A program made the translations under genes and the position numbers. Below, one piece after another: positions 14,363 through 41,152 of a stretch of 64,000 nt of DNA. Each line of letters starts with the position of its first letter. Position 1 is the first letter of the stretch. Location: positions 105,036 to 169,035 of the forward strand of contig JBFXLE010000008.1 in NCBI GenBank assembly GCA_050173015.1, in the 5' to 3' direction. The DNA comes from Calditrichaceae bacterium (GTDB taxonomy: Bacteria; Calditrichota; Calditrichia; Calditrichales; JBFXGD01). The notes beneath the pieces were generated by a model. That model ran no database searches. It was not told the DNA's origin and saw only the letters and a list, made by a program, of their open reading frames with translations.

Positions 14363-14364
14363 TA

Positions 14365-19397: not shown

Positions 19398-19411
19398 TCA
19401 AATTCCTTTTT

Positions 19412-24095: not shown

Positions 24096-25106
24096 TCAGA
24101 TGATCGTCCAGCCATATTTAATCAGAGCAATCAGAAAAGTGTAGGCTATAAAGCAGAATAAACTTGTTTTAATAAAGCGGATTTTCATCATTCCGGCTAT
24201 ATCAGAAATACTATTATTTTTCGAAAAGAACACCATTAAACCGGCGGACATCCCCGTCAAACCGCCGGTGAAAAGTAATCCATAAAGAAGGTAACCCACA
24301 TGTAGGTAATTTGCCCAAAGCATATCAAAGGGACAGTGATGCGAAGGCATCGCGTAAATGTATTTTGAAAAATGAACGATAAGCGCGTCCAACGCGGCGA
24401 TAAACAAGAGTGGTGAAAGCAGACCCGTCACATAACCGGTTCGCTGAAGAAGTTTGGTCTGCCGCTTTTTCAAGCCAAGCACAGCGAGTATGACATAGAA
24501 AATCAGCAATCCGTAAAAAAGATATACTTTTACTGATTCATTATCGCTGCTGTCAAAAGAATTTTGTGACATCGGGTTGTCACTGAATGAAATACTGCAG
24601 CAGGTAGTGATGATATTTGGATTAATATTAAGATAGTACTGAACTTCCGAATAAATTTGTATAAATATAAACGGGATCAGTACCAGCAGCAGATAAAATT
24701 TTTGACGGGTGAGTGGAAATTCAGGGATCTTCTGATCAAGATTATTTATAACAAGCCATAACCCGTAAATAAAAAATCCGCCTATCTTGAGGTAAAGCGT
24801 CATCCAACCAAAACTATTTGTATTTAAAGCGCCCGTTCCGCACATGGCGCCCTTGATCAGCGCCGGGAAATGATCATTTACGGTCACGACAAAAAGCAGG
24901 AGCGAGATCATCTGAAACCCGAACACATAATTCATCACGGTCGATACAAGATGTGTTTTTCTTTCCAGCAGAAGCTGTTCATCCGTCGATGACTGAATAT
25001 CCCATTTTCGGGCGATCTGAACTCCGATGCCGACCGCATAGACGGAGAACACAAGCACAAAGATATCTCCGATCAGCATTACGATGACCCACAGATCGGT
25101 CAGCAT
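24096..25106 (-). CDS. Polytopic membrane protein with Cys/His motifs, function unknown
   Basis: About 8 hydrophobic segments; GAMCGTG, TTCCS, SHHCPF; start abuts the stop of the ABC ATPase. Confidence 0.8.
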   Translation of the reverse strand: MLTDLWVIVMLIGDIFVLVFSVYAVGIGVQIARKWDIQSSTDEQLLLERKTHLVSTVMNYVFGFQMISLLLFVVTVNDHFPALIKGAMCGTGALNTNSFGWMTLYLKIGGFFIYGLWLVINNLDQKIPEFPLTRQKFYLLLVLIPFIFIQIYSEVQYYLNINPNIITTCCSISFSDNPMSQNSFDSSDNESVKVYLFYGLLIFYVILAVLGLKKRQTKLLQRTGYVTGLLSPLLFIAALDALIVHFSKYIYAMPSHHCPFDMLWANYLHVGYLLYGLLFTGGLTGMSAGLMVFFSKNNSISDIAGMMKIRFIKTSLFCFIAYTFLIALIKYGWTII

Positions 25107-25799
25107 CTATTCATGCTCCCCATCGACCAGGTGACCGTCCCTCATACAAATGATGCGGCCTATCAGATCCGATTCATACACAAGGGGATCATGAGTGGCA
25201 ATGATCTGCGTTTTACCCTGTTCTTTAAGATCCCGGAAAATATCCATAATCTGTCCGGATAATTTTGTGTCAAGATGAGCAGTCGGTTCGTCAGCCATGA
25301 TAATTTCCGGATCGGTAATCAATGCCCGGGCAATGGCCACGCGTTGAGCTTCGCCGCCGGAAAGTGTATCAATTTTAAAATTCAGCCGGTGAGAAATATC
25401 CAGACTTTCGGCGATCTTCATCGTCCTCCTGTTGAGTTCTCCGATATTTGGTCCCGAGGGAATCATTGGGATAATGATATTCTGCGCCGCCGTCAGTCCG
25501 CTGATCAGATTAAAATTTTGAAATATAAATCCAATATGTTGTCTTCTGAACAAGGTCAGGAATTTCTCTGTCCATTTTGAGACCCTGTTTCCGAGGATAA
25601 TCACATCACCCGAAGTCGGTTTGGCCATGCACCCCAGCACGGCCATTAAAGTTGTTTTGCCTGATCCGGAGGGACCCTTGAGCGCTATGACTTCTCCTTT
25701 TTTTATATTTAAGTCAACACTTCGAACAGCATCGACCTCATTGACTTTATCCTTATTAAAAGTTTTTGACAGTTTTTGAGTCACAATCATATCAGGCAT
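25107..25799 (-). CDS. ABC ATP-binding protein, LolD/MacB type
   Basis: GPSGSGKTT, IGFIFQNFNL, LSGGEAQRVAIARAL, ADEPT, ATHD. Confidence 0.92.
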   Translation of the reverse strand: MPDMIVTQKLSKTFNKDKVNEVDAVRSVDLNIKKGEVIALKGPSGSGKTTLMAVLGCMAKPTSGDVIILGNRVSKWTEKFLTLFRRQHIGFIFQNFNLISGLTAAQNIIIPMIPSGPNIGELNRRTMKIAESLDISHRLNFKIDTLSGGEAQRVAIARALITDPEIIMADEPTAHLDTKLSGQIMDIFRDLKEQGKTQIIATHDPLVYESDLIGRIICMRDGHLVDGEHE

Positions 25800-26955
25800 G
25801 CATCACCTCCGAAGGGTCAATGACCGCCGCTTTCCAGGATGGTATCATCGTCGCGGCGATATAAGGCACAACAGCAAGAACCAGAATCAGAAGCACACTG
25901 CCGATTTGCACGACCGGCAGCAGATTAAAATCGGGATAAATTACCGACCAGCCGACTAAAAACGGCTTTAACAAGGGCGCCTGAAATATAAAATCATGCG
26001 CATACGCGCCGATTAATCCAATAAGAGTCGCGGTTAGCGAAATGGATATACCTTCCCAGAATTTTAGTAAGAGTATATCCGATATTTCCCAGCCGACAGC
26101 CTTTAGTATTCCCAGTTCTTTTTTTGCTTCTGCTGAGATACCGGAGGCTCTTTGCCAGGCCAGAATCATATAGGCAAAAAGGGAAATCAGCAGTCCGAAC
26201 ATAAACAAGCCCCCTCGATACCCAAACAAAGCTTCGTAGGTTGATTTTATTTCCGATTTTGTAACAACTCTCACGGAAGCAAAACGGCGGTCAATTTTGC
26301 GGCTGATATTTTCTATTTCATCATCATTGAAAACATAGACGGAAAGATCGCTGTAATCTTTTTGTTTCAATCCGACAATCTTTCGCGCGTCTTCTATGGG
26401 AAGGATGATCAAATCCCTGGTCAGCAGATCCGATGGTGAGCTAAACCGGCCGGTTATCGTAAAATTATGCAGATTTTCATCCGTGTCAAAAAGGCTCAGG
26501 TTGTCCTGAAGTCTCAGGTAGTGCGTCTCCATAAAACCGGTTCCGCAAACCGCTATTCCCCGGTCACCGGGTTGAATTCCCTTTCCTTCCACTATGGTGA
26601 GATCTCCGGTAAGAGAATCAGCTCCGATTAAGGTAAACACTCCGCCGGTGGGTGAATCAAAATAATACCCCCAAACGCGCGGAACAACCGATTTAATACC
26701 TCGTATTTCGCTGATACTCTGCGCAAGACTGTCCGGTATTTCAACCATTCGGCCCGCTTTGATCTTCTGCACCGTAATATCGGGCGCGGTGCTAAGCACC
26801 TGCTGTGTTTCATATGACAGCGACTGGATAAAAAAGACAATGGAAGCGTAAGCAAATACAACCACCGAAAATATGGTGATAACTCCAAGATGCCATTTCC
26901 AGTTACGCCGCATTGATGTTAAAAAGAATGCCAGAATAAATAAATGCCGTCTCAT
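25792..26955 (-). CDS. ABC permease, FtsX/LolE/MacB type
   Basis: One TM, large periplasmic domain, then three TM; ELGILKAVGW, PSWKAAVIDP. Confidence 0.88.
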   Translation of the reverse strand: MRRHLFILAFFLTSMRRNWKWHLGVITIFSVVVFAYASIVFFIQSLSYETQQVLSTAPDITVQKIKAGRMVEIPDSLAQSISEIRGIKSVVPRVWGYYFDSPTGGVFTLIGADSLTGDLTIVEGKGIQPGDRGIAVCGTGFMETHYLRLQDNLSLFDTDENLHNFTITGRFSSPSDLLTRDLIILPIEDARKIVGLKQKDYSDLSVYVFNDDEIENISRKIDRRFASVRVVTKSEIKSTYEALFGYRGGLFMFGLLISLFAYMILAWQRASGISAEAKKELGILKAVGWEISDILLLKFWEGISISLTATLIGLIGAYAHDFIFQAPLLKPFLVGWSVIYPDFNLLPVVQIGSVLLILVLAVVPYIAATMIPSWKAAVIDPSEVMHA

Positions 26956-27320
26956 TTCTTATTCCCGTTGATTGGAATTTTGTTTTTAGTGACAACAGTT
27001 TGTGAAGATTGCATCATTTTTACCTGCGAAGGCGGCCAAAAAAACGTGGATGTCGGAAAATGATCCAAAAATCCGGGGATATCCTGAAAAGCCGCGGCCG
27101 GTTCCGGCAGAGCAATATGTCGGGTATGTCTTGATTCCGTTGTCACACACATATCGGTAAGATGCAGCAGCCTGACAATCTCAGCTTCCTCAACCAATCT
27201 CTGCTCATTCGATACTACCGCGCGACTGTGCAGAACGAGAATGGTGAAAATCACAATCAGCATAACCGTTAAAAAAGCATACATTTTCAGAATTATAAAA
27301 TCACGATCAAGACCGGTCAT
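26952..27320 (-). CDS. Small membrane-anchored hypothetical protein
   Basis: One TM followed by LTDMCVTTESRHTRH...DHFP; overlaps the permease start. Confidence 0.7.
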   Translation of the reverse strand: MTGLDRDFIILKMYAFLTVMLIVIFTILVLHSRAVVSNEQRLVEEAEIVRLLHLTDMCVTTESRHTRHIALPEPAAAFQDIPGFLDHFPTSTFFWPPSQVKMMQSSQTVVTKNKIPINGNKK

Positions 27321-27329
27321 TATCTACTC

Positions 27330-28184
27330 TCATTTGTCGCTAACCTTCTTCATGAATTCAATTATTTCAACGGATGTCAGTAACTTCCCACGGTGAATTT
27401 TGATAAATTCTTCAGCAATCATTTTTTCTTTAAATGCCAGTACGGGCATTTTTCCCGCGTTCAGAAGCACATTACTGTTTATTACAAACCATGCTTTTTC
27501 CATTCCGAAGGGAAAACCCGTTGTAAAATTTATGACCCTGATATTGCTTAAATTACCGCCGTCCATTTTAATCTTCGCGCATTTAAGACCACATGCGTTA
27601 ACGATCCCTTTATCCGTGATTATTTCCAGGCGTGAAAGTTGTTTTTCATATACGGGTTGCTCACAGTGGTAGCAAACCCCGATTTTTTCCCCGGGCTCAG
27701 GATAAAACACTCTTGAATAATCGTTCACACTGTTTTCTCTAGCCAGTTTTAGGATCGATTCCGTTCCGAAAATTGATCCGCCATGCTGACTGACAAAATA
27801 AACAGCCCTGTCTTGCCGGTCAAATACCATCACAGGAAATATAGCGTTCGCCGGATAATGATTTCCCCCAAGAACAAAAATCGCGTTTGCCGCGGAAATC
27901 ATCCGGCCCGAATAATATTCTTTTACATACATGTCAGCATACCGGTCTGAATTGTCGATAAGTTTTATCGCGCATGGCAGCGAGCAGGCATATTCCGGAT
28001 CCTTCCCCTTAAGAATCAAATCAACTTTGGTCATCATATTCTCATAAATATCTGCTCCGCAATTTATACATGTACTGATTTTTTTACCCAGATCAGGTTT
28101 GAAGAATTTATCAGCTTCCCCTGAAATGGCGCTTGCGGCCATGACAAACATCAGAAAAACGATATACCATTTCTTATATGACAT
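27330..28184 (-). CDS. Secreted protein with two tandem NosL-like metal-binding domains
   Basis: Signal peptide; repeats CINC...CSLPC and CYHC...CGLKC, each ending A..F...H.G. Confidence 0.8.
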   Translation of the reverse strand: MSYKKWYIVFLMFVMAASAISGEADKFFKPDLGKKISTCINCGADIYENMMTKVDLILKGKDPEYACSLPCAIKLIDNSDRYADMYVKEYYSGRMISAANAIFVLGGNHYPANAIFPVMVFDRQDRAVYFVSQHGGSIFGTESILKLARENSVNDYSRVFYPEPGEKIGVCYHCEQPVYEKQLSRLEIITDKGIVNACGLKCAKIKMDGGNLSNIRVINFTTGFPFGMEKAWFVINSNVLLNAGKMPVLAFKEKMIAEEFIKIHRGKLLTSVEIIEFMKKVSDK

Positions 28185-28989
28185 TGGTAACCTCCTGTGA
28201 ATGATATGAATTTACCGCGGCAGCAGCCGCTCCTATAGCCGTCGTAACCTGGGGCTGTCTGCATATTACCACCGGCCTCATCAGTTCATCTTCCAACGCC
28301 GCCAGCATACCTCTGTTCAAGGCGGCGCCGCCATCAAACAGGATGACATCTTCGACCTTTACCCTCCCCGCTAAACGGGCAATCCTTCTCGCTATGGAAT
28401 AATGGATGCCGGCCGCGATCTCGCTTTTGCTATGTCCCGCGGCCAGAAGAGAGATGATTTCTGATTCCGCGAAAACAGCGCATGTGCTGTTTATCGGCAA
28501 TGGCTGATCAGCGCTTTGAAAATGTAGTTCGGCAAATTCGGAAAGATCTACTTCCAGATTTCTTGCGGCCATTTCCAGAAACCGTCCCGTCCCGGCCGCG
28601 CATTTATCGTTCATTACAAAATTGCTCACATGACCATCAGGATCTAGTTCAATCACTTTGGCATCCTGTCCGCCAACATTTATAATCGTCCGTATATTAC
28701 CCGATTCACGGCATGTCAGAACCGAACCCATGGCGTTGGCTGTTATTTCATTGATTGATTCATCACTGTCCTTAAACAGCTTCCTTCCATAGCCCGTTGA
28801 GACCGTGTAAAGCAATTCATCCCTGTTCAGGTTGTTTTTATCCAGCAGCGTCTGCAGCCCGTCCGCCGCGTTTTTATTAAAGCTGCTGCCGGTAGGAGAT
28901 GTGCCGGTGGCAATTAATTGAAGTGAATCATCAAGCAGGGCAATTTTTATCGCGCTTGATCCGATATCAATTCCCGCGTAATAAGACAT
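28174..28989 (-). CDS. ATP-dependent [4Fe-4S] activator/reductase (HgdC/BcrA/DCCP-R, ASKHA family)
   Basis: GIDIGS, TGYGR, GGQDAK, MNDKCAAGTGRFLE, STCAVFAESE. Confidence 0.93.
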   Translation of the reverse strand: MSYYAGIDIGSSAIKIALLDDSLQLIATGTSPTGSSFNKNAADGLQTLLDKNNLNRDELLYTVSTGYGRKLFKDSDESINEITANAMGSVLTCRESGNIRTIINVGGQDAKVIELDPDGHVSNFVMNDKCAAGTGRFLEMAARNLEVDLSEFAELHFQSADQPLPINSTCAVFAESEIISLLAAGHSKSEIAAGIHYSIARRIARLAGRVKVEDVILFDGGAALNRGMLAALEDELMRPVVICRQPQVTTAIGAAAAAVNSYHSQEVTNVI

Positions 28990-30286
28990 TCTCTGTCTCC
29001 GAATGGTTTTTCCGTTTTTTCAATTTTATTGATTCGAGAAACGCTTCTATTCTAGTTGATAACTGTCCCGCGTCTTCAGGGCTGTAATCGGTTTCAATAT
29101 AAAGCATGGGTATTCCTTCATCGGAAAGCAGTCTGCCTGTTTTACGTGATTCCAGTTCATAGAGCTGACACCCCGCGAATGCCTGATAAATGACCCCGTC
29201 CACCGCAAACTGCCGGACATTGTCTAACAACTTCCGGAATCTGTCTGAATTCGGAGTGAAATTCGGACAGGTCCCCGGCTTAAGATAGCGGTCCGCGATC
29301 GCCGGAATCATATCATATAAATACCACTCATCCACGGCAACAGTGTCATAAAGCAAGCGCGTGGTCGAACAAAATTCTTCTGTAACCACAATTCCCCCCA
29401 GTTTTTCGATTAAAACGGGAAGTTTCATGTTTGGAAATATTGACGGCGATCCTGTCAGAAGAATTCGCGGAGCTCTTTCAGCGGCGACAGCGCGCCTTTC
29501 AATTTTTCTTGCCTCCATCTCATCATTCAGGCGGGATAAGGCCGCGGTCCATGACATGATATCATCAAAGAAAAAGGTGTTTGATATGAGTATGGCGTCT
29601 TTTCCGCCAATAACCGGCAACGTTTTGCGATTTTCATTGAACCTTCGGAACTGATTTTGCGCCTCAGCCACCATTTTTATGGAGTCGCGCAATCTGCTTC
29701 TCGTTATCCTTTGGCCGGTCACTTTTTCAAGCTTCAGAACCAGTTTTTTGACTGCCCCCTGCCAATAGAAACGGGCCTCTTCACTATCTTTTGTCGGCGG
29801 TACTTCGAGAGTGTAAAATTCGGCGTCAATGTCTTCGACGACTTCCGGGAGCTTCTTTTTTTGATCACAGGTTGTTGGATTTATAATCAGATCCGGCTTT
29901 ACATTTCGAGCGAATGTATTCGCGTATAGTGAGCCCAGAGTGGATTTAATCAATGGACATGTTTTGGCGGGAAGAAATTCGGCGCCTATGGTATCTGTCG
30001 CATAAGCCCCGGAACATATCCGAACCGGGATCGCTCCCGCCGCATAGATTAGTTCCAGCGGGACGTGAATACACATTGTCGCGATGACTTTTTTTCCGTT
30101 GGGATTAAATCCTGAACTATCGGAATACCATTTCAGCTTATCATAAAAATATTCCATCGCTTTCAGATTCTCCGGAAAATCATCCATGATCTCCCGAAGG
30201 CTCTTATTTGATTCCATACGAAGATGAACCGCCGCCGTTTTTTTGATGCGCTCTTTTCTGTTTAAAGTGTCGCTCATTTCTCCCAT
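28967..30286 (-). CDS. Double-cubane-cluster-type anaerobic reductase (2-hydroxyacyl-CoA dehydratase D-component family)
   Basis: MCIHVP, TCPLIKS, TTCDQKKK, PRILLTG, EEFC, TCPNFTPN, GCQLY, ETDYS.ED.GQL.TRIEAFLE match the recalled DCCP pattern; overlaps the activator gene. Confidence 0.85.
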   Translation of the reverse strand: MGEMSDTLNRKERIKKTAAVHLRMESNKSLREIMDDFPENLKAMEYFYDKLKWYSDSSGFNPNGKKVIATMCIHVPLELIYAAGAIPVRICSGAYATDTIGAEFLPAKTCPLIKSTLGSLYANTFARNVKPDLIINPTTCDQKKKLPEVVEDIDAEFYTLEVPPTKDSEEARFYWQGAVKKLVLKLEKVTGQRITRSRLRDSIKMVAEAQNQFRRFNENRKTLPVIGGKDAILISNTFFFDDIMSWTAALSRLNDEMEARKIERRAVAAERAPRILLTGSPSIFPNMKLPVLIEKLGGIVVTEEFCSTTRLLYDTVAVDEWYLYDMIPAIADRYLKPGTCPNFTPNSDRFRKLLDNVRQFAVDGVIYQAFAGCQLYELESRKTGRLLSDEGIPMLYIETDYSPEDAGQLSTRIEAFLESIKLKKRKNHSETENVLLRGN

Positions 30287-31278
30287 CCGGTCACCTCCGA
30301 TTTTTCGGTAACATTAAATCTTTTAAAAAATCCTTTTTCAGTCGATGTAAATACCGGCATGGTCAGAATCGACACCTTAAGACAATCGTTCTCAGGGCAG
30401 GCTTCAACGCATTTAAAACACATCATGCAGTCATCCCGTACAATATTTTTACTTTCAATATCATCCGCGATTTCTTTGATCCCCACATCACACACACGAT
30501 GACAATTTCCACAACGGGTGCATTTCGATCCATCCTTGGTCAGCCTCAGTAATGATGCTTTTGAAAATATATATTGCAGCGCGCTCATTGGACAGAAAAA
30601 ACAAAAAAACCGCTTTTTCACAAACGAACCTGTGATGAACAGACCGGTCACAATGAGTCCCAGTGTGGACATAATGATGGTCGTACCCGAACTGAAATCT
30701 ACCGCGAACTGCGATGTATCACCTGAAAATAAAGGCAAAACCGTTCTACCCGGACAAACCTGGCAAAACGGAGCGGACAGATCATGTGAAAATTTTGGAA
30801 GGCCGAAAAGTGAATTGCTCATCCCTAAAGGAATCAGAATAAGGAGAATCAACAGAATGTATTTTATCTTCTTCAGATGTTTAAAGGTTAGTTCATCGTA
30901 TTTCGAAAAACGGACACCCGTTTTCTTTCGTAATCCGGTAATCCAGTCCTGAATCGTACCCAGAGGACAGATATACCCACACCAGGCTTTGTTAAAGAAA
31001 ATGAAAAGGATAAAGAATACAACAATTCCGTTCAGCAAAGCTATACCGCGCCAGCTAAACAGGCTGCTCCAGGTTGTATGCAACCTGTGTTGCAGGCTTA
31101 TCAGGAAACAGGTCCCTGCGCTGCCCTGATTATAAGGACAGGCAAAAGTCGGGATCTGGTCACTTATGTGGATAAAATAGTACCCGCCGTAAATCAGCAC
31201 CAGAAATGCCGCTAGCTGAAAGTAAAATCTGAACCGGCTGATATTCGAAAAATTGATATAATCGCTGATTCTATTCAT
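30274..31278 (-). CDS. Membrane 4Fe-4S binding protein (NapH/MauN/YccM-like)
   Basis: TM helices, WCGYICPLG, FCQVCP, FCFFCP, CTRCGNCHRVC, CMMCFKCVEACP. Start ATG 31278 overlaps the upstream stop. Confidence 0.88.
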   Translation of the reverse strand: MNRISDYINFSNISRFRFYFQLAAFLVLIYGGYYFIHISDQIPTFACPYNQGSAGTCFLISLQHRLHTTWSSLFSWRGIALLNGIVVFFILFIFFNKAWCGYICPLGTIQDWITGLRKKTGVRFSKYDELTFKHLKKIKYILLILLILIPLGMSNSLFGLPKFSHDLSAPFCQVCPGRTVLPLFSGDTSQFAVDFSSGTTIIMSTLGLIVTGLFITGSFVKKRFFCFFCPMSALQYIFSKASLLRLTKDGSKCTRCGNCHRVCDVGIKEIADDIESKNIVRDDCMMCFKCVEACPENDCLKVSILTMPVFTSTEKGFFKRFNVTEKSEVTGWEK

Positions 31279-32251
31279 TGAATGTGACCTCCCGGTACGG
31301 TACTTTTTTCCGCTCGCGATAGTAAAAAACAGCAACGGCAGCCAGGGAAAGCGCGAATACAAAAACGATCATTGCCCAGACCGCGGAAGAATACATCATT
31401 TTTGACGGAATATAACTTTCCGAAAATGTGGCAGTATACCGGACGCGCTTATAGGAACTGCCGTCAAATTCACCGTTTTCGGTAATGTCATGTTCGGATA
31501 CAATCAAAAAATTAAATATTTTTTGTTTCTCAAATTCAGATAACGTTGAAAAATAGTCCTCCGGTATTTGAAATGTCACTTCTCCGTTTTTATCCGATTC
31601 TGCTAATTTAGCCCATCCGGTTTGGGTGATGAGTTTTACCTTTGAACCTGAAACCGGGGTTCCGTTAAGATTTAATTTGAAAGTTACTTTGTCACCGGAC
31701 TGAATAAAGGTATGGAAATCCTCCCGGGGAAGCCTGTTTCTTATGACTTCATATGGGATATGACTTTTCAGGTCCTTGGGTTGAAGATTCGCAAGCACGT
31801 GTTTGTGCCCGTTTTGACATTTATGACTCAACCGTTCCGCTTTCGCGCTGATTATGTGCAGCGTATCTCCGGATACATATTTTTTCGTAAGATAAAGATT
31901 GTAGAATCCCTCCAGATTGCCGTTGTATATTATGGTCCCTTTCTCAAACTCACAGTCAATCAATTTATTTTCAGGTGAGAGGAGATGGACTCGCGCATTT
32001 ACGGATGGCGGGCCGGTTAAATATTCTGATTCTCCGGGCAGTGTCCCCGCCCGTATCCATTGTATGATATGAAAGACTCCCCTTTTACCGTTCCCCGGGA
32101 CGGAAGAGATTTTATGCATTCCGAACGGCTGAATTTTCTTATCCGCGTCTTTCGGCGGAACATTTGATATCCAAAAAGTATTTTCCGCTTTTAAAGACGC
32201 GCCCTGAAAAATCAGAAAAATCGCAAAACAATAATAAATATATTTTTTCAT
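31271..32251 (-). CDS. Secreted, C-terminally anchored protein (DUF4198-like, putative metal handling)
   Basis: Signal peptide, HKCQNGHKH, Ig-like 'GDKVTF..NG.PV...SDKNGEVTF' segment, C-terminal TM. Confidence 0.65.
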   Translation of the reverse strand: MKKYIYYCFAIFLIFQGASLKAENTFWISNVPPKDADKKIQPFGMHKISSVPGNGKRGVFHIIQWIRAGTLPGESEYLTGPPSVNARVHLLSPENKLIDCEFEKGTIIYNGNLEGFYNLYLTKKYVSGDTLHIISAKAERLSHKCQNGHKHVLANLQPKDLKSHIPYEVIRNRLPREDFHTFIQSGDKVTFKLNLNGTPVSGSKVKLITQTGWAKLAESDKNGEVTFQIPEDYFSTLSEFEKQKIFNFLIVSEHDITENGEFDGSSYKRVRYTATFSESYIPSKMMYSSAVWAMIVFVFALSLAAVAVFYYRERKKVPYREVTFNE

Positions 32252-32317
32252 CCTGTCTGCCTTTCACTCAGGAAGTCTGAAAAATCTCTCTCACCATTTA
32301 AACGACCTCATTCCGGA

Positions 32318-34549
32318 TTAAAATTTTAATCCCGCCGTTATGGTGACATTAACCGGGTAACCGGGATAGTAAGATTCACTCCAGACGCCCCTGCTGTAAC
32401 TGGCGTAAGCCCATGTAGCGTAATTTGTATCAAATACATTGTTTACACTCAAAGACGCGAAATAACGCCGTGTTTCATATGACAGTTTGGTGTTTACAAT
32501 ACCGTATCCGCCATATAGATGTACATTTTCATTGTCCATATAATATTTATCTACCCATTTCCAGCTTATATCCGCGCTCAACCCTGAAGAATGAACATAG
32601 CGCAGATCGGCTCCAACCTGATGGCGGGGTGTTTTCCTGAGATAATTATCATTGTAATCCTGGGAATTATCAAAACGGGCCTCTAAATACGCGTAATTCA
32701 ATGAGAGTATCAGAGATTCCACTAATTTCAGATTTCCCGCAAATTCAACTCCTTTATGAATGGTCTCACCGACATTCTCGTATTTTCCTGAAATCTCATC
32801 CTTGATAATCTGATCGGTAAAGTTCATCGCAAATAAGGAAACCTGGTAATCAAATCTCCGTGATATCTTTCCCCGCGCGCCTATTTCATAATTCGTCAGA
32901 TACTCGGATTTCAAATCCGGATTGGGTACCACCCCATATCCGCCAATAAATAACTGAGAAATTTGCGGAGGGTTGAAACCCCGTCCGACATTGGTGTAGA
33001 TAGTTAAAAATTTGAATGGATTATAGGATAATGCCAGTTTTGGACTCCAGGCGCTGATTGTGGCGACATCCGAAGTATTTCCGTCGTCGGGGAGACGATC
33101 ATCCCAATCATAATGAACACGGTCGTATCTGAGTCCGAATGAAAGCATCAGGGGATTGGAAATCTGAAAATCATTTTGCAGGTAATACCCATTGATATCA
33201 TAGATACTTGTTCCCTTATCCGTCATATCCGTCTTGACACCAAATTCGTCAAGATCAAATGTTTCGGAATCACCGTTTTCCCGCTCAGCAGTGATTCCGC
33301 CGATAAGAGAATTTCTTTTCCCAAGGATAAAAAATGATCGCTGCAGTCTTATTTCACCGCCAAAAAGATTGATGTCATCTTCGCTGGTGAAGGTATCGTT
33401 ATAACCGCCTTCATCCATGCAATTTCTGAAAAATAAATTGGAATTCAGGTCGAATCCGGATGAAAAATGTTTTTTATGTGTGATTCCAAGCCTGAAAAAC
33501 TCCTTTTTGCTTCCCGCGAATTTATTTTCGTTTGCTGTTTCGCGCGCTTCGAACTGCTCCTTAGAGAGAGAACCGGGAAAATCGGTATCACTCCGGATAT
33601 AGTCCAGCGACAGCATCATATTACCCAATCGCTCGTAATCGGTCTGGAGTTTTGCGGCGAATTTATCCGCGTTGTATGAATTTCTGTCTCTGTACCCGTT
33701 TGTGGAATGATCCGACGCGCTGAGATATATCCCGTACTGGCCTAATTGGCCGCCGGCGCTCATAGTAAATTTTTTTAAATCGTATGCGCCGAATGATGAT
33801 TCTATTTTGCTTTCAAATTTTTTCGGGGCCTTTTTTGTGACGATATTGATAACCCCCGTAATACCATTTGGACCGTATAATGCTGATACCGGACCCTTCA
33901 AGACTTCAATCTTTTCGATATTTCCAAGATCAATCCCTTCAAAATCAACCCTTCCCATTGCTTCATTAATGGAAATCCCGTCAACCAGTACTAAAATTCC
34001 CCTTGTCACATGAGAATGCAGTCCCACACCGCGGAAACTCACCACATTATATTCTGAATGAAAACGGTCTTCAGTAAAAACCCCCGGAATTTTCTGAAGC
34101 ATGGTCTCCACATTTCTCATTTCGGCCTGTTTTATATCATCCATTGAGACCAGATATACCGAGGCCGGAATATCTTTTATCTCTTTTTCCATTTTTGTCG
34201 CCGTTACAACGACTCTTCCTTCTGATTCATAAATTATCGGATTAAGACCGAAATTTATTGTTGTAGTTTCACCTGCATTCACCCGGATGTCTTTTCTCAC
34301 CACTTTTTCATATCCGATCAACAATGCTTCAAGGGTGTAAACGCCGGGTTTGACATTACGAATTTCGTAATTACCGGCATAGTCGCTTACATCCCCGAGA
34401 TATTCGCCTGTAATGTATATTTGTGCTTCCTGGAGTACGGTATTTGTTAAATTGTCATTCACATTCCCTTTAATGACACCGAATTCCTGAGCAAAAATTA
34501 TATTTGCGAACAGAATCAGTAAAAACCCCCCAGATGTGAAATATTTCAT
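32318..34549 (-). CDS. TonB-dependent outer-membrane receptor
   Basis: N-terminal carboxypeptidase-regulatory-like domain, VVVTATK, IEVLKGPVSALYG...GVINIVTK plug, NPDL.SE, NNVFD, terminal Phe. Confidence 0.95.
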   Translation of the reverse strand: MKYFTSGGFLLILFANIIFAQEFGVIKGNVNDNLTNTVLQEAQIYITGEYLGDVSDYAGNYEIRNVKPGVYTLEALLIGYEKVVRKDIRVNAGETTTINFGLNPIIYESEGRVVVTATKMEKEIKDIPASVYLVSMDDIKQAEMRNVETMLQKIPGVFTEDRFHSEYNVVSFRGVGLHSHVTRGILVLVDGISINEAMGRVDFEGIDLGNIEKIEVLKGPVSALYGPNGITGVINIVTKKAPKKFESKIESSFGAYDLKKFTMSAGGQLGQYGIYLSASDHSTNGYRDRNSYNADKFAAKLQTDYERLGNMMLSLDYIRSDTDFPGSLSKEQFEARETANENKFAGSKKEFFRLGITHKKHFSSGFDLNSNLFFRNCMDEGGYNDTFTSEDDINLFGGEIRLQRSFFILGKRNSLIGGITAERENGDSETFDLDEFGVKTDMTDKGTSIYDINGYYLQNDFQISNPLMLSFGLRYDRVHYDWDDRLPDDGNTSDVATISAWSPKLALSYNPFKFLTIYTNVGRGFNPPQISQLFIGGYGVVPNPDLKSEYLTNYEIGARGKISRRFDYQVSLFAMNFTDQIIKDEISGKYENVGETIHKGVEFAGNLKLVESLILSLNYAYLEARFDNSQDYNDNYLRKTPRHQVGADLRYVHSSGLSADISWKWVDKYYMDNENVHLYGGYGIVNTKLSYETRRYFASLSVNNVFDTNYATWAYASYSRGVWSESYYPGYPVNVTITAGLKF

Positions 34550-34634
34550 TTATTTTCTCCTGATGCTGAGAGTTCTATGTTAAACTTTAAATCATACGTG
34601 AGAGACCGAGAATGAAGCCTTTAAAGCACAAATT

Positions 34635-35120
34635 CTATTTTTGTTTGTTCTTTTCAGCCATTCGCTCCATTCTGATTGCTGTGGCGGTTTTTATCATTTC
34701 TAAACCGGTTAAATAGGTACCGCCGTAATGCCCGATAAAAAATTCAGCATTTTCACTGCTTCTGAATGAAAAAGTCGGCATCATGGCATAAGCGGGGAGA
34801 ATGTTGCTGCCGACCACAAAACTGGCATCGTTCATTTCTATCAGATCACCCGTATAGAAATCCTTTACTTTTACGGAAGTGTATTTAGTTTTGTCCATCA
34901 ATGCTGTCGCGCAGCCCACGGCGCAGGCATGTGTTACCGGGCCCCCGTCAAGTGACAATTCAATCCGAGTCCACATCTTTTCATAAACATCCATTCCGCA
35001 AATGGGGCAGGATCCGATTTTATCACCCAGATCCGGCTTCAGAACCGCGCCGGCGTTTTGTGAGTACCCGATAGCCATAAATAATAAAATGCAAATTATG
35101 ATTAATTTTATCGATTTCAT
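34635..35120 (-). CDS. NosL-like secreted metal-binding protein
   Basis: Signal peptide, CPICGM, HACAVGC, FVVGS...AMMP...F...YGG. Confidence 0.8.
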   Translation of the reverse strand: MKSIKLIIICILLFMAIGYSQNAGAVLKPDLGDKIGSCPICGMDVYEKMWTRIELSLDGGPVTHACAVGCATALMDKTKYTSVKVKDFYTGDLIEMNDASFVVGSNILPAYAMMPTFSFRSSENAEFFIGHYGGTYLTGLEMIKTATAIRMERMAEKNKQK

Positions 35121-35163
35121 TTTTAATCTCCGTTTTACTTTTTAAAGATTAATTTTGAATGAA

Positions 35164-35649
35164 TTACATTTCCTGTCCAACAGACAGTCTCATCAACAAA
35201 TCCCATGTGACTTCGTCAAATTTTAACATTTTACTACCCTGATGATCCTCCCTGAATTCTTCCGCGTCCGTTTTTGTTTTTAGCGGCACCAGTTCATTCC
35301 CCATCGGCCCAAGAATATCGCTGTCAATCACAAAAAAGGCGCTGTCGGCTTCTACCCACTGCAGTTCATAATATTCGCGAACATATATTTTCACCGGTTT
35401 TTGTTCAGCGGACCCTCCGTATTTTTCCGGATGCAGAAAATATTTAAACATATCTTTTGGACCGTCAAAAAACTTCACCATCCCATCCGCATAAATCATT
35501 TCAGCAATCCATTTCGGATAGGGGTGAACAAACATGGCGCAAACCGGACAGCGATCCTTCTCACCGGGCATTTTTGGATTTTGATCAGCAGCCTCCGAAA
35601 CAAAAACAACCAGGAGAAGCGACAAAATGATTATTTTGATTTTTTTCAT
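35164..35649 (-). CDS. NosL-family protein
   Basis: RCPVCAM, FFDGPKDM, SDILGPMG, F.EDHQG. Confidence 0.88.
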   Translation of the reverse strand: MKKIKIIILSLLLVVFVSEAADQNPKMPGEKDRCPVCAMFVHPYPKWIAEMIYADGMVKFFDGPKDMFKYFLHPEKYGGSAEQKPVKIYVREYYELQWVEADSAFFVIDSDILGPMGNELVPLKTKTDAEEFREDHQGSKMLKFDEVTWDLLMRLSVGQEM

Positions 35650-35712
35650 TTATAAATATCCTTTAAATCTTGTGTTCAAAAGACAAGCGTTATTATTGTT
35701 CCCCCACAGGAC

Positions 35713-36234
35713 TCAGGGACCGTTCTGACTTGCTGTCTTATTTTCAGTTCGGCGGCCAATTCTGTCAAAAATATATTGTTCTGTAAGCCACCCGACATAA
35801 ACCTCGAGAATCACACCTTCCCTGCTTAGTACAAAAGTAGTGGGGATTCCTTTGATTTTGTAGCGCTTCGCGGTTTTTGCGTACTCATCCACCAGCATTG
35901 GAAAAGTCACGTTAAATTCAATCTGAAAATCCTCCACATGATATTTGCTCTGTCCAACATTTACGCAAAGAATTTCCGCCTGCGCCATATCGCCAAACTT
36001 CTCATACGAGTTCTGCATCACCGGAAACTCGGAACGACATTCAGAGCACCAATCCCCCCAAAAATGAAGAAGGACTATTTTCCCTTTATAGTCATTTAAT
36101 GATACTTCCCTGCCGTTTACGTCATTTAGAAGAAAATCAGGCGCCTGCTCACCGATTTCGGGCATTCTATCACCGCATCCCATCATCATCATGAGAAAAA
36201 GGGTGATGATCCCCGTCTCTGAGATTTTTTTCAA
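35713..36234 (-). CDS. TlpA/ResA-like thioredoxin lipoprotein
   Basis: MMGC lipobox, APDF.L, FWGDWCSEC, GIPTTF. Confidence 0.92.
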   Translation of the reverse strand: MKKISETGIITLFLMMMMGCGDRMPEIGEQAPDFLLNDVNGREVSLNDYKGKIVLLHFWGDWCSECRSEFPVMQNSYEKFGDMAQAEILCVNVGQSKYHVEDFQIEFNVTFPMLVDEYAKTAKRYKIKGIPTTFVLSREGVILEVYVGWLTEQYIFDRIGRRTENKTASQNGP

Positions 36235-36317
36235 TTTCAGATACTCCGAAATAAATTCCGTCTCATAAAAACGGGATATTAATCAAGTTTTATTAATTAG
36301 AAGACTAAAGGGATGGA

Positions 36318-36695
36318 TTATTCGGGTGGATGATAAATATCCTTCTGTAAAACAGGGATACTCAAAAAATCATTTTTTGGTTTTAACAGGGTTTGCTTAT
36401 CGGGGATTAAAAGCAAATTTTCAAAAAACATTAATTTAGCGGTTAGATCCATAACCACCGGAACAATCGTACTCATGCGTGAAGCACAATGCGTAAACCC
36501 GATCAGGCCGGCCTCATCATCACAGGTGCATTTTGTCATATCACCATTGCATCCGCAATTGCAATAATGGACCAAATCCGGAAGCGCTTCCGCCTGCCGG
36601 AAGGCTTCCTGAATGACAGGTACTCCGGCCATATTAAAAATGACCAGGAAGCTCATAAATAACGCCAGGATTTTTTTCCGATTGACCCGATTCAT
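36318..36695 (-). CDS. Cys-rich small membrane protein ending in HPP (putative CruR/DUF2946-like regulatory upstream ORF)
   Basis: N-terminal hydrophobic segment, HYCNCGC...KCTC...HC (6 Cys), C-terminus DIYHPPE. Confidence 0.65.
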   Translation of the reverse strand: MNRVNRKKILALFMSFLVIFNMAGVPVIQEAFRQAEALPDLVHYCNCGCNGDMTKCTCDDEAGLIGFTHCASRMSTIVPVVMDLTAKLMFFENLLLIPDKQTLLKPKNDFLSIPVLQKDIYHPPE

Positions 36696-36713: not shown

Positions 36714-37547
36714 TTACAAATCTTTGTTTGAAAATATTTTTATCGCCAGCGCCAGCGGCAGACCGCCCCATGCCAGCAATGCCGTAAATAATACCAGAAA
36801 TCCGCTTCCCGTTCCGCCTACAAACTTTAATACCGCCCCTGCCGTAGGCCCGAACATGATCTTTCCGCCCAGAACAAACAAGGTTCCTACCCTTACAAGA
36901 TCAACCGGATTTCCAAAAAGCATTCCAAAAAGCACATTACGGAGTACGTTTCCCTCAAAACTGGAAGCCAGCCACATGACAAGCAAATCATAAAGAATAA
37001 CAAATATGAACCAGACAAATAAACCGATACTGAGGGCTTGTGTTCTTTTCATAGTGATCACACTTATCAGCGCGGAAATACTTAAAAATATCAACCCTAA
37101 AACAAGACTCAGCAAAACAAAAGCGATATACGCCGTCAGATCACTCGCGCCCGCTCTCCATCCGATGACCATACCGGCGGCGCCGAAACCGATACCTGTG
37201 GAAATCACTATAGCGAGAAACAAACCAAAATACTTCCCCAGCAGATTTTCTGATCGCAATACCGGCTGTGATATCTGAAGCTGCAGTGCTCCCGGTTCAT
37301 CCGACGCAAAGCTCATTGCTCCCAGAATTAGAGCTACCAACGGGACAAGGTAAAGATTCAAATTTAATAAACTCGCTGTTGTGCGGATAAAATCCTGGAA
37401 ACCGGTAAATCCTGATATTTTTGTGCCCGCGAAACTGATTGTAAGAGCGATTACAGCAAATACCACCGAAAAAATCATCACCCAACGGCTACGGATTACC
37501 GAGAGTAATTCCTGCATGGCAATTGAATTAATTATTTTAATATTCAT
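36714..37547 (-). CDS. nosY: NosY ABC permease for CuZ maturation
   Basis: RTTASLLNL, YLVPLVAL, GKY.G, YDLL, NPVDL.R; downstream of nosDFL. Confidence 0.9.
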   Translation of the reverse strand: MNIKIINSIAMQELLSVIRSRWVMIFSVVFAVIALTISFAGTKISGFTGFQDFIRTTASLLNLNLYLVPLVALILGAMSFASDEPGALQLQISQPVLRSENLLGKYFGLFLAIVISTGIGFGAAGMVIGWRAGASDLTAYIAFVLLSLVLGLIFLSISALISVITMKRTQALSIGLFVWFIFVILYDLLVMWLASSFEGNVLRNVLFGMLFGNPVDLVRVGTLFVLGGKIMFGPTAGAVLKFVGGTGSGFLVLFTALLAWGGLPLALAIKIFSNKDL

Positions 37548-38307
37548 AGGATTCCTTTGTCTCTTCTGCCAGATGCGCTCCCGTTACAATGAGCCTGCCA
37601 ATTATTTTATCTGAATTATTCTCAAAAATATCAAAGCGGTCGCCGGGCTTATCAACCTTTAATCTGTACATTCTTGATTCCCCGTATGGAATTTCCATTT
37701 GCAATTCAGGATAATTCAGGATACTGATTGACGCATCCTTTTCTGTCCGGTTCGATATACGAATCTGTACTATCTGATTCAGAGTTGCTTCAAATACTTC
37801 CGGAGTGAGCTTATTCTGGATATAATCCGCCCGGACATATAAATCCGGTTCCTGATATTCGTCCCACATTTTATTCCATGAGAGAATTTCGCCCTCGCGG
37901 ATTGTATTTTTAAATTTCAGCGCTGCCGCCGAATCGCTAAAAGTCGTAACATTAAAGTCCATGACAGGAGTGCGATAATCACCCCTGACAAAGAGAGCGC
38001 TGTCCGCGGCAATCCAGTTTTTTGTGTCAAAGGCAATCACATAAAATTTGAGTATATTATTTTTCTCCCTCACGTGGCCGCCGGAAAAATACTGTACCAT
38101 GCAGATGGGATGATCAAATTTTATGATCTCTCCATTTATTTTGATTAATTCAGCGGCATACTCAAAATCAAGAATCTCCATCCGGCAGGTTATACAAATA
38201 TCACCCTTTTCAACCGGTACGGGCTCACCCGAAATGCTCCCGCATCCCGTAATCAATGAAAAGATGGCACTTAATATGGCCTGACCGATCCATTTTTGTA
38301 TGCTCAT
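37537..38307 (-). CDS. nosL: NosL copper chaperone lipoprotein with C-terminal cupredoxin-like extension
   Basis: ITGC lipobox, CITCRM, FDHPICM, TPVM; extra ~100 aa beta-rich tail. Confidence 0.85.
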   Translation of the reverse strand: MSIQKWIGQAILSAIFSLITGCGSISGEPVPVEKGDICITCRMEILDFEYAAELIKINGEIIKFDHPICMVQYFSGGHVREKNNILKFYVIAFDTKNWIAADSALFVRGDYRTPVMDFNVTTFSDSAAALKFKNTIREGEILSWNKMWDEYQEPDLYVRADYIQNKLTPEVFEATLNQIVQIRISNRTEKDASISILNYPELQMEIPYGESRMYRLKVDKPGDRFDIFENNSDKIIGRLIVTGAHLAEETKESYEY

Positions 38308-39212
38308 TCCTGAATATTCTCCGAAAATATCCTGTTGTAAACATATTCCAGCGTCGGGTCTTCCGTCCAGAAACGCTCTATTTTTGCCCCGGCTTTACGC
38401 AGAATTTCCAGCAAATTAGGACGTTTGTCGGCTTCAACAACTACCCGGAAAATGTCACCTTCGATTTCAACTTCCCTCGCTCCGTTCGCAAGAAGCAGAT
38501 CCTTGTATTCCGGTTGTGTATTAAGAAATACAATAATCATTCTGGCATCGGCGTCAGATGTTCTCTTTAATTCAAGCGCGTCTTTTACGGCAATCAGCCG
38601 GCCGTCTTTCAGAAGAGCGATTCGGTCCGCCAGTTGTTCCGCTTCGCTCAACAGATGTGTGGCCATGACAATAGTGCATTTTCTGGCTTTAATCTCCCTC
38701 ACGAGTTCTTTAAACTTGGCCACGCCCTGCAGATCAAGGTTTATGGTTGGCTCATCAAGGATGTAGACGTTAGCCGGAGACAATTTCAATAATCCTAGAC
38801 CAAGCCTCTGAACCATTCCCCCTGAAAACACCCCGACAAATTTATCCGTTGATCCGTTCAGATTGATATCTTTTAAAATCTCATTAATATGAGTCTGCGG
38901 TTGTTGTCTTATTTTCGAGTGATACAAAAGAATCTCTCTGGCCGTCAAATTATCCGGAAATGACAGCCTCTGGGGCAAAAACATCATATTTTTTTTAACT
39001 TCCCTTGGATATTTCCAGACATCGGTGTCATTGACTAAAATCTGTCCGGTTGTGGGCTTGATAAGCCCAATGATCATTTTTAATAATGTCGATTTTCCGC
39101 TGCCGTTCGGACCAAGCAGAGCAAAGGTCTCTCCGGGTTTTATGTCAAGATCGACGTTATTAACAGCAAGCGTATCTTTGAATTTTTTTGATATATTTCT
39201 GATCTTTATCAT
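38304..39212 (-). CDS. nosF: NosF ABC ATPase
   Basis: GPNGSGKS, FSGGM, LDEP; lies between nosD and nosL. Confidence 0.9.
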   Translation of the reverse strand: MIKIRNISKKFKDTLAVNNVDLDIKPGETFALLGPNGSGKSTLLKMIIGLIKPTTGQILVNDTDVWKYPREVKKNMMFLPQRLSFPDNLTAREILLYHSKIRQQPQTHINEILKDINLNGSTDKFVGVFSGGMVQRLGLGLLKLSPANVYILDEPTINLDLQGVAKFKELVREIKARKCTIVMATHLLSEAEQLADRIALLKDGRLIAVKDALELKRTSDADARMIIVFLNTQPEYKDLLLANGAREVEIEGDIFRVVVEADKRPNLLEILRKAGAKIERFWTEDPTLEYVYNRIFSENIQE

Positions 39213-39228
39213 AATCCGTCCGGGATAA

Positions 39229-40650: not shown

Positions 40651-40720
40651 TTTTTCCCATCATTTTAAACAGATTGATTTTATACTATTATAAGAGACTC
40701 AATCAATAAAACCTGAAATC

Positions 40721-41149: not shown

Positions 41150-41152
41150 TAT

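Follow-up and report, generated by a model that had tools for sequence, protein, structure and literature searches.

A composite gene run beside a clade II nos operon joins a conserved double-cubane reductase cassette to a TonB receptor and may supply metal

Introduction

Double-cubane cluster proteins (DCCPs) are nitrogenase-like, ATP-driven reductases without a known job; they reduce small unsaturated molecules, and their physiological substrate is described as not known (PMC7317905). In anaerobes, genes for DCCPs neighbour the selenocysteine-assisted organometallic (SAO) locus, for which a role in metal-trafficking uptake has been proposed (bioRxiv 10.1101/2022.07.06.499078). Here, a DCCP gene is described in another setting, a run of 14 genes at positions 24,096 to 36,695 of a 64,000-nucleotide stretch of a Calditrichaceae genome (contig JBFXLE010000008.1; the whole stretch is called the window below), where it is accompanied by genes for a membrane iron-sulfur protein, a periplasmic protein of a metal-binding fold and a TonB-dependent receptor, and where the run adjoins the genes for a clade II nitrous oxide (N2O) reductase. 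The context found for this reductase across at least eight phyla names partners for it and provides a concrete hypothesis for its role.

Counterparts of the other components have been described as well. CcoG is a NapH-type iron-sulfur membrane protein with a periplasmic Ig-like domain and a proven cupric reductase acting for a cuproenzyme, while NosA/OprC is a TonB-dependent outer-membrane copper route to N2O reductase (both PMC7558416). Proteins of the DUF4198 family are periplasmic, bind Zn or Ni and often adjoin TonB receptors; the characterised Ni-binding member has a Kd of 18 nM, and the genes of characterised members adjoin those of TonB receptors and NikR (PMC12663993, PMC12537917). The Ftr1-P19 iron uptake operon of Campylobacter jejuni (genes 1649-1656) combines periplasmic metal-binding and membrane proteins with ABC permeases, their ATPase and periplasmic thioredoxins (PMC6083913).

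The source of copper for clade II reducers in anoxic, sulfidic sediments is unsettled, and a dedicated uptake module in or beside nos makes this question testable. Copper supply limits N2O reduction, which is the only known biological sink of this greenhouse gas. A preliminary description of the window had put the system forward as possibly undescribed, and in this respect it stands: no published description of it turned up in short keyword searches of the open full-text literature, nor did any of a DCCP together with a TonB receptor, a DUF4198 protein, a NapH-like protein or nos genes, subscription papers and some supplements lying outside that literature. Three unnamed families are newly defined in the process, namely a Cys/His membrane protein of 336 amino acids (aa), a Cys-rich 125-aa protein and a Cys-containing branch of DUF4198.

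A conserved core within a composite gene run

The conserved unit is a core of four genes, usually together with a receptor gene. A 22-sequence DCCP alignment was searched in one genome per species (185,579 species), which yielded 207 relatives, and the best 79 of these 207 loci were examined with up to 10 kb per side, their open reading frames (ORFs) being searched with the window proteins. Genes for a DUF4198-like protein, a NapH-like protein, the DCCP and its activase follow one another in this order, contiguously and on one strand, in 70 of the 79 loci; of the nine that depart from this pattern, eight run into a contig end, and in the ninth (L055) a spurious overlapping match is interposed. 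The tie between the reductase trio (DCCP, activase and NapH-like protein) and a periplasmic protein, drawn earlier from the window, is borne out by this contiguity. Directly upstream of the core, a TonB receptor is encoded in 51 of the 79 loci, and the cassette bears the marks of a TonB-energised uptake system. It is present in Bacteroidota, Ignavibacteriota, Calditrichota, Nitrospirota, Thermodesulfobacteriota, Pseudomonadota, Spirochaetota and Campylobacterota.

The DCCPs (n=77) fall into two clades in a quick maximum-likelihood tree, the split having 98% support in the Shimodaira-Hasegawa-like approximate likelihood ratio test (SH-aLRT). Clade A comprises the window and 29 loci, from Bacteroidota, Ignavibacteriota, Calditrichota, two Desulfobacteraceae, one member of Fidelibacterota and one unclassified organism; the other loci are 47 in clade B and three outside the tree (short ORF calls). 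A small membrane protein (clusters c6, c17 and c55, of which c6 and c17/c55 are mutually related, hhalign 96%) is encoded before the receptor in 15 of the 29 clade A loci and in none of the 50 others. The converse distribution is seen for a DsbD_2-family membrane protein after the activase (0/29 against 28/50) and for ExbB, ExbD and TonB genes after the cassette (0/29 against 11-12 of 50). Two further clusters (c13, c42) were dropped as spurious Arg-rich antisense ORFs in high-GC loci, and the resistance-nodulation-division (RND) pumps that neighbour some cassettes could not be placed clearly among the heavy-metal pumps, their best rows being multidrug subfamilies, all under cutoff.

The proposal that all 14 genes form one conserved system did not hold, as only a core of four to five genes is kept elsewhere. 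The ABC unit at the far end of the run accompanies the core in three of the 79 loci and its 336-aa membrane protein alone in a fourth, while extra NosL, TlpA and Cys-rich genes are absent near the core in the other loci, bar scattered NosL genes. Because these parts are separable in other loci, the presumed system splits into three, and the run is a composite, made up of the conserved core, another cassette that recurs and periplasmic accessories particular to the lineage. In the nearest locus (L001, from a Calditrichaceae metagenome-assembled genome, MAG), the DCCP is 90% identical and the downstream gene order is as in the window.

For the window itself, ORF calls and searches of Pfam and NCBIfam confirmed the 14 co-oriented, tightly packed genes described from 18 bp past nosY onwards, with their coordinates and families, all on the minus strand (Table 1), which carries every gene between 46539 and 24096. 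The gene at this 18-bp spacing is that of the Cys-rich 125-aa protein. Six junctions of the run overlap, by 4-23 bp, one abuts and the remaining spacings measure 9-85 bp. Overlaps are found between the DUF4198-like and NapH-like genes (8 bp, given the ATG at 31278, which is the likely start of the latter rather than the TTG at 31362), the NapH-like and DCCP genes (13 bp), the DCCP and activase genes (23 bp, at the DCCP stop), the activase and tandem NosL genes (11 bp), the p122 and FtsX genes (4 bp) and the FtsX and ATPase genes (8 bp). The genes for the ABC ATPase and the 336-aa protein abut, and the next gene, encoding an unrelated haloacid dehalogenase (HAD) hydrolase, follows after 173 bp.

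Table 1. Genes of the run and the adjoining nos genes in the window, with the matches or sequence features on which each assignment is based (TM, transmembrane).
Feature	Position	Strand	Basis
Small Cys-rich membrane-anchored protein, 125 aa	36318..36695	-	N-terminal TM helix, Cys motifs
TlpA/ResA-like periplasmic thiol:disulfide oxidoreductase, lipoprotein signal, WCSEC	35713..36234	-	AhpC-TSA 4.9e-27, Redoxin 1.8e-18
NosL-family protein, canonical, CPVCAM motif	35164..35649	-	PF05573 1.4e-31, 110 bits
Divergent NosL-like protein	34635..35120	-	PF05573 1.7e-6, 28.8 bits (cutoff 24)
TonB-dependent outer-membrane receptor (CarboxypepD_reg + plug + barrel)	32318..34549	-	Pfam
Membrane-anchored DUF4198-fold periplasmic protein, 326 aa	31271..32251	-	sub-threshold PF10670, fold match
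NapH/CcoG-like 4-TM iron-sulfur protein	30274..31278	-	Fer4_5 4.7e-13, Fer4_10 4.9e-11
DCCP, catalytic reductase component	28967..30286	-	NF040772, PDB 7yyl/6eno
ATP-dependent activase (BcrAD_BadFG/archerase type)	28174..28989	-	PF01869, TIGR00241
Tandem NosL-like periplasmic protein, two domains, 284 aa	27330..28184	-	PF05573 1.4e-11 (first half), 45.3 bits
p122, small membrane protein (122 aa), first gene of ABC unit	26952..27320	-	no family match
MacB/LolCE-type permease	25792..26955	-	FtsX 31.4 bits (cutoff 25.5), MacB_PCD 28.0 bits (cutoff 27)
ABC ATPase, MacB/LolD/FtsE type	25107..25799	-	ABC_tran 5.2e-32
Polytopic Cys/His membrane protein, 336 aa	24096..25106	-	GAMC, CC, PxHHCP motifs
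Clade II nos genes: nosZ, nosB-like, 142-aa gene, nosD, nosF, 256-aa NosL-like, nosY	36714..43821	-	TIGR04246, TIGR04247

Linkage to nos genes

The link between the core and nos is real, confined to one clade and not obligatory. Within the fetched flanks (up to 10 kb), nos genes lie near the core in 8 of the 25 loci from Bacteroidota, Ignavibacteriota and Calditrichota (FCB loci), and a count restricted to loci with flanks of 6 kb or more on each side gives 5/8 for FCB and 0/29 for the others; L001 cannot be judged in this regard, its contig starting inside the cassette. The preliminary description's association with nos is thus upheld for these eight loci but is clade-restricted, none of the 54 non-FCB loci showing it. 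The alternative offered there, that of an independent metal system which has come to neighbour nos, is for its part partly right, since the core occurs without nos nearby in 54 of 54 non-FCB loci.

At least four nos-linked arrangements are seen in total. The cassette stands inside the nos operon in L005, L016 and L019, between nosD and a polyferredoxin/NapH pair (NosG/H-like) followed by nosF, a nosL-like gene and nosY, and the same placement holds for L011 and L030 as far as their contigs reach. It is divergent from nosZ in L008, upstream of nosZ in L013, convergent with nosH-F-L-Y in L064 and placed after nosY in the window. Because the arrangements differ, repeated selection of the linkage can be argued for, and more soundly so than from the DCCP tree, on which the nos-linkage label changes at least five times, a count that overstates the independent events, many of the unlabelled rows being short contigs. 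The NapH-like protein of the cassette is a paralogue of the NosH-like gene product in L005, L016 and L019.

The window nos genes form a clade II (Sec-type) cluster, with NosZ (TIGR04246, 823.4 bits, cutoff 625; Sec-type), NosD (TIGR04247, 381.3 bits, cutoff 300), an ABC ATPase (nosF) and an ABC-2 permease (nosY). At its upstream end are genes for a Rieske protein, cytochrome b and a multi-haem/cytochrome c protein. A NosR equivalog was not found by NCBIfam among the 21 nos and module proteins of the window that were scanned, the sole NosR row being the NapH-like protein, at 23.7 bits against a cutoff of 1000. The cluster has a NosL-like gene of its own between nosF and nosY (37537-38307), which encodes a 256-aa lipoprotein with a C-terminal extension (PF05573, 38.3 bits, cutoff 24), and this F-L-Y order recurs in L005, L016, L019 and L030. 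Before the cytochrome b, cytochrome c and nosZ genes stand those of a MerR-family regulator, a 645-aa GltD-like iron-sulfur flavoprotein and the Rieske protein (46556-49474), which may be a dedicated electron-input module for the clade II N2O reductase of the window. Three genes at 907-4834 of the window, a HydF gene and two of the radical-SAM type of which one encodes a BATS domain, resemble the [FeFe]-hydrogenase maturases HydG/HydE/HydF; the organism would therefore be an anaerobe.

The reductase pair

The window DCCP only just reaches the family model (NF040772, 350.2 bits against a cutoff of 350), and over residues 60-421 it matches PDB 7yyl at 2.4e-69 and 6eno at 8.3e-69. Seven Cys residues (C72, C91, C110, C140, C306, C340 and C373) are invariant in 22 aligned DCCPs. 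The published motif reads CX19CX18-19CX29CX166-170CX32-34CX32C (Haft & Gwadz, bioRxiv 10.1101/2022.07.06.499078), and the window protein keeps its order with spacings of X18, X18, X29, X165, X33 and X32, two intervals being one residue under the published ranges. A dedicated activase gene follows, as in described double-cubane reductases, whose product matches PF01869 at 5.3e-53 and TIGR00241 at 231.6 bits (cutoff 125.4). The window protein is predicted to carry an [8Fe-9S] cluster and to reduce its substrate at the expense of ATP. Of the records from a plasmid search for DCCP relatives, that of Sulfurovum mangrovi was useful, and the remaining 15 were YjiM-type or otherwise distant DCCPs of about 30-33% identity.

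The NapH-like and DUF4198-fold proteins

The NapH-like protein scores below cutoff against both TIGR02163 (NapH/NosH; NapH/MauN row; 76.3 bits, cutoff 213) and CcoG TIGR02745 (19.6 bits, cutoff 316.7), and it has the architecture of the NapH/NosH type, with four TM helices, CX3CP motifs and two [4Fe-4S] motifs, the topology being read from sequence only. In 30 sequences (63% mean identity), two ferredoxin-type 4-Cys motifs with eight invariant Cys were found together with four further invariant Cys pairs, one of them CX3CP, two CX2CP and a fourth in addition. With the ferredoxin-type motifs of the C-terminal domain in the cytoplasm, by analogy with the topology of NapH, two of these pairs would face the periplasm and two the cytoplasm. 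Among solved structures, Foldseek gave no relative of this protein at E<=0.001, for a model with a predicted local distance difference test (pLDDT) score of only 67. A further NapH-like ORF seen in L031 is left out of account.

The 326-aa protein encoded before it matches PF10670 below threshold (22.8 bits, cutoff 34; residues 184-231 only). Its AlphaFold2 model (pLDDT 90.6) confirms a DUF4198 fold at the level of prediction, the nine best PDB matches in Foldseek being only Zcp (Zn-, Cu- or Co-bound) and the Ni-bound DUF4198 protein of Ideonella, with E values of 1.5e-9 to 5e-7 and target TM scores of 0.59-0.66. Relatives keep H143, C145, H149, E168 and H180 in at least 85% of 56 sequences, which amounts to an HxCx3H...E...H signature, and the mature N-terminus of the window protein is not His. 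A C-terminal membrane helix is followed by a conserved cytoplasmic tail, YRxRRxxPYxExxFDE (31271-31330 in the window, and in relatives), which hints at a cytoplasmic binding partner.

Natural fusions further suggest that parts of the cassette are physically coupled. On the Sulfurovum mangrovi plasmid NZ_CP087125.1 (L080, 10804-12972), a 722-aa NapH-like::DUF4198-like fusion, annotated '4Fe-4S binding protein', occupies the cassette position and is followed by a second NapH-like gene, the DCCP and the activase; its C-terminal 200 residues align with the window DUF4198-like protein at 5e-21, and this homologue is without the HxCx3H cysteine. A second fusion, a 611-aa NapH-like Fer4_5::NosL protein (NosL 2.8e-14), is encoded in L076 (470-2305), 3 kb upstream of the cassette with an RND pump gene between. 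A search of a large protein collection had returned no fused NapH-like form at E<=1e-20 among longer proteins, which is weak evidence, and the loci later showed these fusions. Together with the conserved tail, they suggest that the DUF4198-like and NapH-like proteins form a complex. The receptor upstream of the Sulfurovum cassette (L080, 7764-9943) is annotated as two coding sequences, plug and then barrel, 56 bases apart.

The receptor

The closest solved relatives of the window receptor are YncD (1.2e-44) and the pyrroloquinoline quinone (PQQ) transporter (9.4e-44), and the 44 other cassette receptors have a median identity of 27% to it. Orthology with PqqU/YncD was ruled out (NF041535, 173.6 bits against a cutoff of 1200), and so was orthology with NosA/OprC, of which no chain appears among the 30 PDB sequences at E<=1e-10 and whose CxxxM-HxM motif the receptor does not have. 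In three loci from Lutibacter/Flavobacteriaceae (L009, L023, L027), units of the small Cys-motif membrane protein c6 and a TonB receptor are repeated, each unit also having either a BNR-like protein with CxCC/CPH motifs or a YtkA-like lipoprotein, which hints that such receptor modules form a broader family within Bacteroidota.

Periplasmic accessories

The Cys-rich 125-aa protein has no Pfam or NCBIfam match. Among 1.84 billion representatives, 14 matches at E<=1e-3 were obtained, and it is by sequence a real, rare and small family. Twelve of these matches were aligned, those of 1014 and 838 aa being excluded, and they share an N-terminal TM helix, the motifs CxCGCxG[DE]xxxCxC and G[FY]xxC and a C-terminal HPP. 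Homology to the c6/c17/c55 proteins, which take the corresponding place in 15 of the 29 clade A loci, was unsupported (hhalign 1% and 0.3%; with the family alignment 22% and 7%). The TlpA-like protein falls short of the ResA subfamily (131 bits, cutoff 170). In Bradyrhizobium, TlpA reduces copper chaperones.

Four window proteins, those encoded at 35164, 34635, 27330 and 37537, pass the PF05573 gathering score of 24. The two halves of the tandem NosL-like protein match the divergent protein encoded at 34635 at 4e-31 and 5e-25, with 37% identity for each half, and each other at 9e-13. The NosL-type proteins of the window are predicted to bind Cu(I). With the TonB receptor, the NosL copies, TlpA and a DUF4198-fold protein whose matches are Zcp and Ni-DUF4198, the trans-envelope handling of metal proposed in the preliminary description fits the gene content.

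The ABC unit

The last four genes encode p122, a permease of the MacB/LolCDE type (type VII), with FtsX C-terminal and MacB periplasmic core domains, a separate ATPase and the 336-aa membrane protein. The best NCBIfam rows of the ATPase are a bacteriocin exporter, FtsE, MacB and LolD, all under their cutoffs, and identity of the permease with LolCE itself was ruled out (53 bits to the LolCE equivalog, cutoff 362). The 336-aa protein has no Pfam or NCBIfam match, and the Atlas gives hypothetical clusters only; at least 271 relatives were obtained at E<=1e-5, none of them bearing a name beyond 'hypothetical', and the motifs GAMC, CC and PxHHCP are invariant in 32 sequences of the family. The whole unit stands beside the core in L001, L045 (Rhodocyclaceae, with a gene for the copper chaperone SCO1/SenC before the unit) and L058 (Thermodesulfobacteriota), with p122 homologues directly upstream of FtsX, and the 336-aa protein occurs without the rest of it in L017. 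The unit is a cassette of its own that recurs and is associated with copper chaperones.

Proposed function and alternative explanations

Reductase-coupled metal acquisition is the probable function of the core, judging from the sequence and context of its genes. A TonB receptor energised by ExbBD-TonB would carry a trace metal, either free or in a complex, through the outer membrane to the periplasm, where the DUF4198-fold protein, whose fold and conservation are apparent, would capture it at its His-x-Cys-x3-His...Glu...His site. This putative metal-binding protein would dock on the NapH-like protein, which would link the periplasmic metal site with the cytoplasm. There, the activase would use ATP to charge the [8Fe-9S] DCCP with electrons of very low potential, and the pair might either feed these electrons into the NapH-like membrane module or take a substrate from it. 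The metal or its ligand could thereby be reduced, in a reductive hand-off resembling that of CcoG, or else a thiol path be kept reduced. In the window the cargo would be copper for CuA and CuZ of the Sec-type N2O reductase, with the Cys-rich protein, TlpA and four extra NosL domains' worth of chaperone serving as periplasmic carriers and reductant. The region would then be a composite unit for metal supply that adjoins the nos operon, and this full reading, including copper for N2O reductase, is put forward tentatively, with confidence a little short of even.

In clade A, the window included, the cargo is most likely copper. Apart from nos linkage, the clues are NosL genes near the core in L048 and L075, the latter also having a multicopper oxidase gene, the SCO1 gene before the ABC unit in L045 and the NapH-like::NosL fusion in L076. 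CcoG, as a cupric reductase of the NapH type, and NosA/OprC, as a TonB-dependent copper route to NosZ, are precedents that favour copper as well (PMC7558416). The core itself may not be copper-specific.

A number of observations weigh against supply of copper to N2O reductase. In addition to the absence of nos genes from all 54 non-FCB loci, none were found in the 9-10-kb flanks of L002, L009 and L022, nor in those of the unclassified L018, and the survey as a whole covers the best 79 of 207 loci. In 45 aligned cassette receptors no conserved Cys, His or Met was found, the CxxxM-HxM motif of OprC included, and the nearest solved relatives of the window receptor carry PQQ or unknown cargo. No metal riboswitch was detected: at gathering thresholds, Rfam gave no match in the window, and for the 14 loci scanned out of the 79 it gave just one tRNA and two '5_ureB_sRNA' matches, the latter marking urease genes. 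Moreover, reduction of Cu(II) needs no ATP-driven donor of low potential, and simple cupric reduction therefore leaves the DCCP unexplained. This leaves three possibilities. The substrate could be a refractory species, for instance a chelate of high stability or metal bound to sulfide or thiols; the electrons could serve a thiol/disulfide relay by way of the Cys pairs; or the DCCP could work on an imported ligand.

One specific and rather doubtful version of the copper supply reading is an ATP-driven, envelope-spanning machine in which electrons of a potential far under what is usual in cells pass through the NapH/CcoG-like protein and mobilise copper captured in the periplasm from inaccessible forms, sulfide- or thiol-bound copper for example, for NosZ in sulfidic, copper-starved habitats, and which would serve other metalloenzymes, such as urease, elsewhere. 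It would constitute the first physiological context for DCCPs, and sulfide might be mobilised alongside the copper.

The strongest alternative is that the core takes up another metal (Ni, Zn, Fe or Co) or several of them, and that its position by nos in FCB loci reflects shared anoxic regulation or convenience. It too is unlikely, although further points against copper speak for it. In L077 (Azovibrio restrictus DSM 23866, 524-19675) and L078 (an Azonexus MAG), both Rhodocyclales, the cassette with three TonB receptors lies inside a urease cluster, between ureDABC and ureF and on the opposite strand; urease is a Ni enzyme, and these flanks point to nickel. The DsbD_2 family found after the activase outside clade A is also annotated as UreH-like. 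An MntR/DtxR-type repressor gene stands beside the cassette of L017, the characterised DUF4198 relatives bind Zn (Zcp) and Ni, at the affinity and in the gene neighbourhoods given above (PMC12663993, PMC12537917), and nos is missing from every non-FCB locus. What this explanation does not readily accommodate is nos linkage in at least four arrangements, including insertion within the operon after nosD and before nosF, nor the NosL, SCO1 and multicopper oxidase neighbours and the NapH::NosL fusion outside nos contexts; in addition, the conserved site contains a Cys that is missing from the Zn and Ni sites of characterised DUF4198 proteins (PMC12663993, PMC12537917).

Less probable still is import of a metal-ligand or organometallic compound from which the cytoplasmic DCCP would reductively cleave or release the ligand, a Gram-negative counterpart of the proposed link between DCCPs and SAO. 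The reactivity of DCCPs with small unsaturated molecules and their want of a known physiological substrate (PMC7317905) would suit such a role, as would their co-occurrence with an SAO uptake locus that bears metal-binding Cys/Sec motifs (bioRxiv 10.1101/2022.07.06.499078); the cassette receptors vary widely and have no conserved metal ligands, as would be expected of receptors for chelates, and DsbD_2, after the activase in 28 of the 50 loci outside clade A, is a candidate inner-membrane carrier. This carrier is nevertheless absent from all 29 clade A cassettes and from the window, no classical binding-protein-dependent importer is present, the flanks examined hold no genes for metallophore biosynthesis, and a soluble cytoplasmic reaction would not need so tight a link of the DCCP with membrane iron-sulfur and periplasmic proteins.

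It is improbable that the DCCP, activase and NapH-like protein inject low-potential electrons into the periplasm for activation or repair of N2O reductase, a task that in clade I is ascribed to NosR. CuZ in the resting state calls for a strong reductant, the scanned nos and module proteins include no NosR equivalog, and in L005, L016 and L019 the cassette sits between nosD and the nosG/nosH-like pair, with its NapH-like protein paralogous to the NosH-like one; set against this are the 54 of 54 non-FCB loci without nos nearby and a TonB receptor, ExbBD-TonB genes and a DUF4198-fold protein that such a function leaves unexplained. Finally, it is scarcely credible that unrelated operons without a shared function came together by chance in these 14 genes, for although NosL/TlpA genes, core and ABC unit are separable in other genomes and promoter and terminator consensus scans gave no clear pattern either way (counts about the shuffle expectation, and not used here), the junctions overlap or abut from the DUF4198-like gene to the last gene, and the arrangement is more than chance because it is conserved in other genomes, with an identical order in L001, the core kept in 70 of 79 loci and the ABC unit near it in three.

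Comparison with known systems

The reductase pair resembles DCCP/DCCP-R of Carboxydothermus hydrogenoformans (6eno, 7yyl) in sequence, in the seven Cys and in the archerase-type activase gene that follows the DCCP gene in the window. The Carboxydothermus protein has neither a known physiological substrate nor known partners (PMC7317905), whereas the window DCCP shares an operon with a membrane iron-sulfur protein, a periplasmic protein of a metal-binding fold and a TonB receptor. With Zcp of Neisseria gonorrhoeae and IsDUF4198 of Ideonella sakaiensis, the 326-aa protein has in common its fold (E 1.5e-9, target TM 0.65), a periplasmic location and proximity to TonB receptors; it differs in its 9-12% identity, its score below the Pfam cutoff, its membrane anchor and cytoplasmic tail, and its HxCx3H...E...H set, apparently in place of the three-His site of Zcp (H29/H31/H142) or the N-terminal His of IsDUF4198.

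NosA/OprC is likewise a TonB-dependent outer-membrane copper route for NosZ, and the window receptor is encoded with nos; the two are not orthologous, the window receptor having no CxxxM-HxM. CcoG (FixG/RdxA) is polytopic and combines CxxxCP-type motifs with a pair of [4Fe-4S] clusters and an Ig-like domain in the periplasm (PMC7558416), parts of a kind that the window splits over two genes, but its similarity to the window protein is marginal, its periplasmic domain belongs to another family and it is without linkage to a DCCP or a TonB receptor. The SAO locus is the sole earlier proposal found that ties DCCPs to metal uptake, and differs in having a binding-protein ABC importer, a MerB-like enzyme and selenoproteins, and no TonB receptor, DUF4198 or NapH-like protein. 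The thioredoxin and ABC parts of the C. jejuni Ftr1-P19 operon resemble TlpA and the p122-FtsX-ABC-membrane protein unit of the window, a comparison by description of the parts, and that operon, unlike the window, is without a DCCP, NosL or TonB receptor. FtrD of the FtrABCD iron system is a NapH-like polyferredoxin too. Placed among these systems, the feature is probably a system of TonB-dependent metal acquisition that has taken on an ATP-driven double-cubane reductase by way of a CcoG/NapH-like protein.

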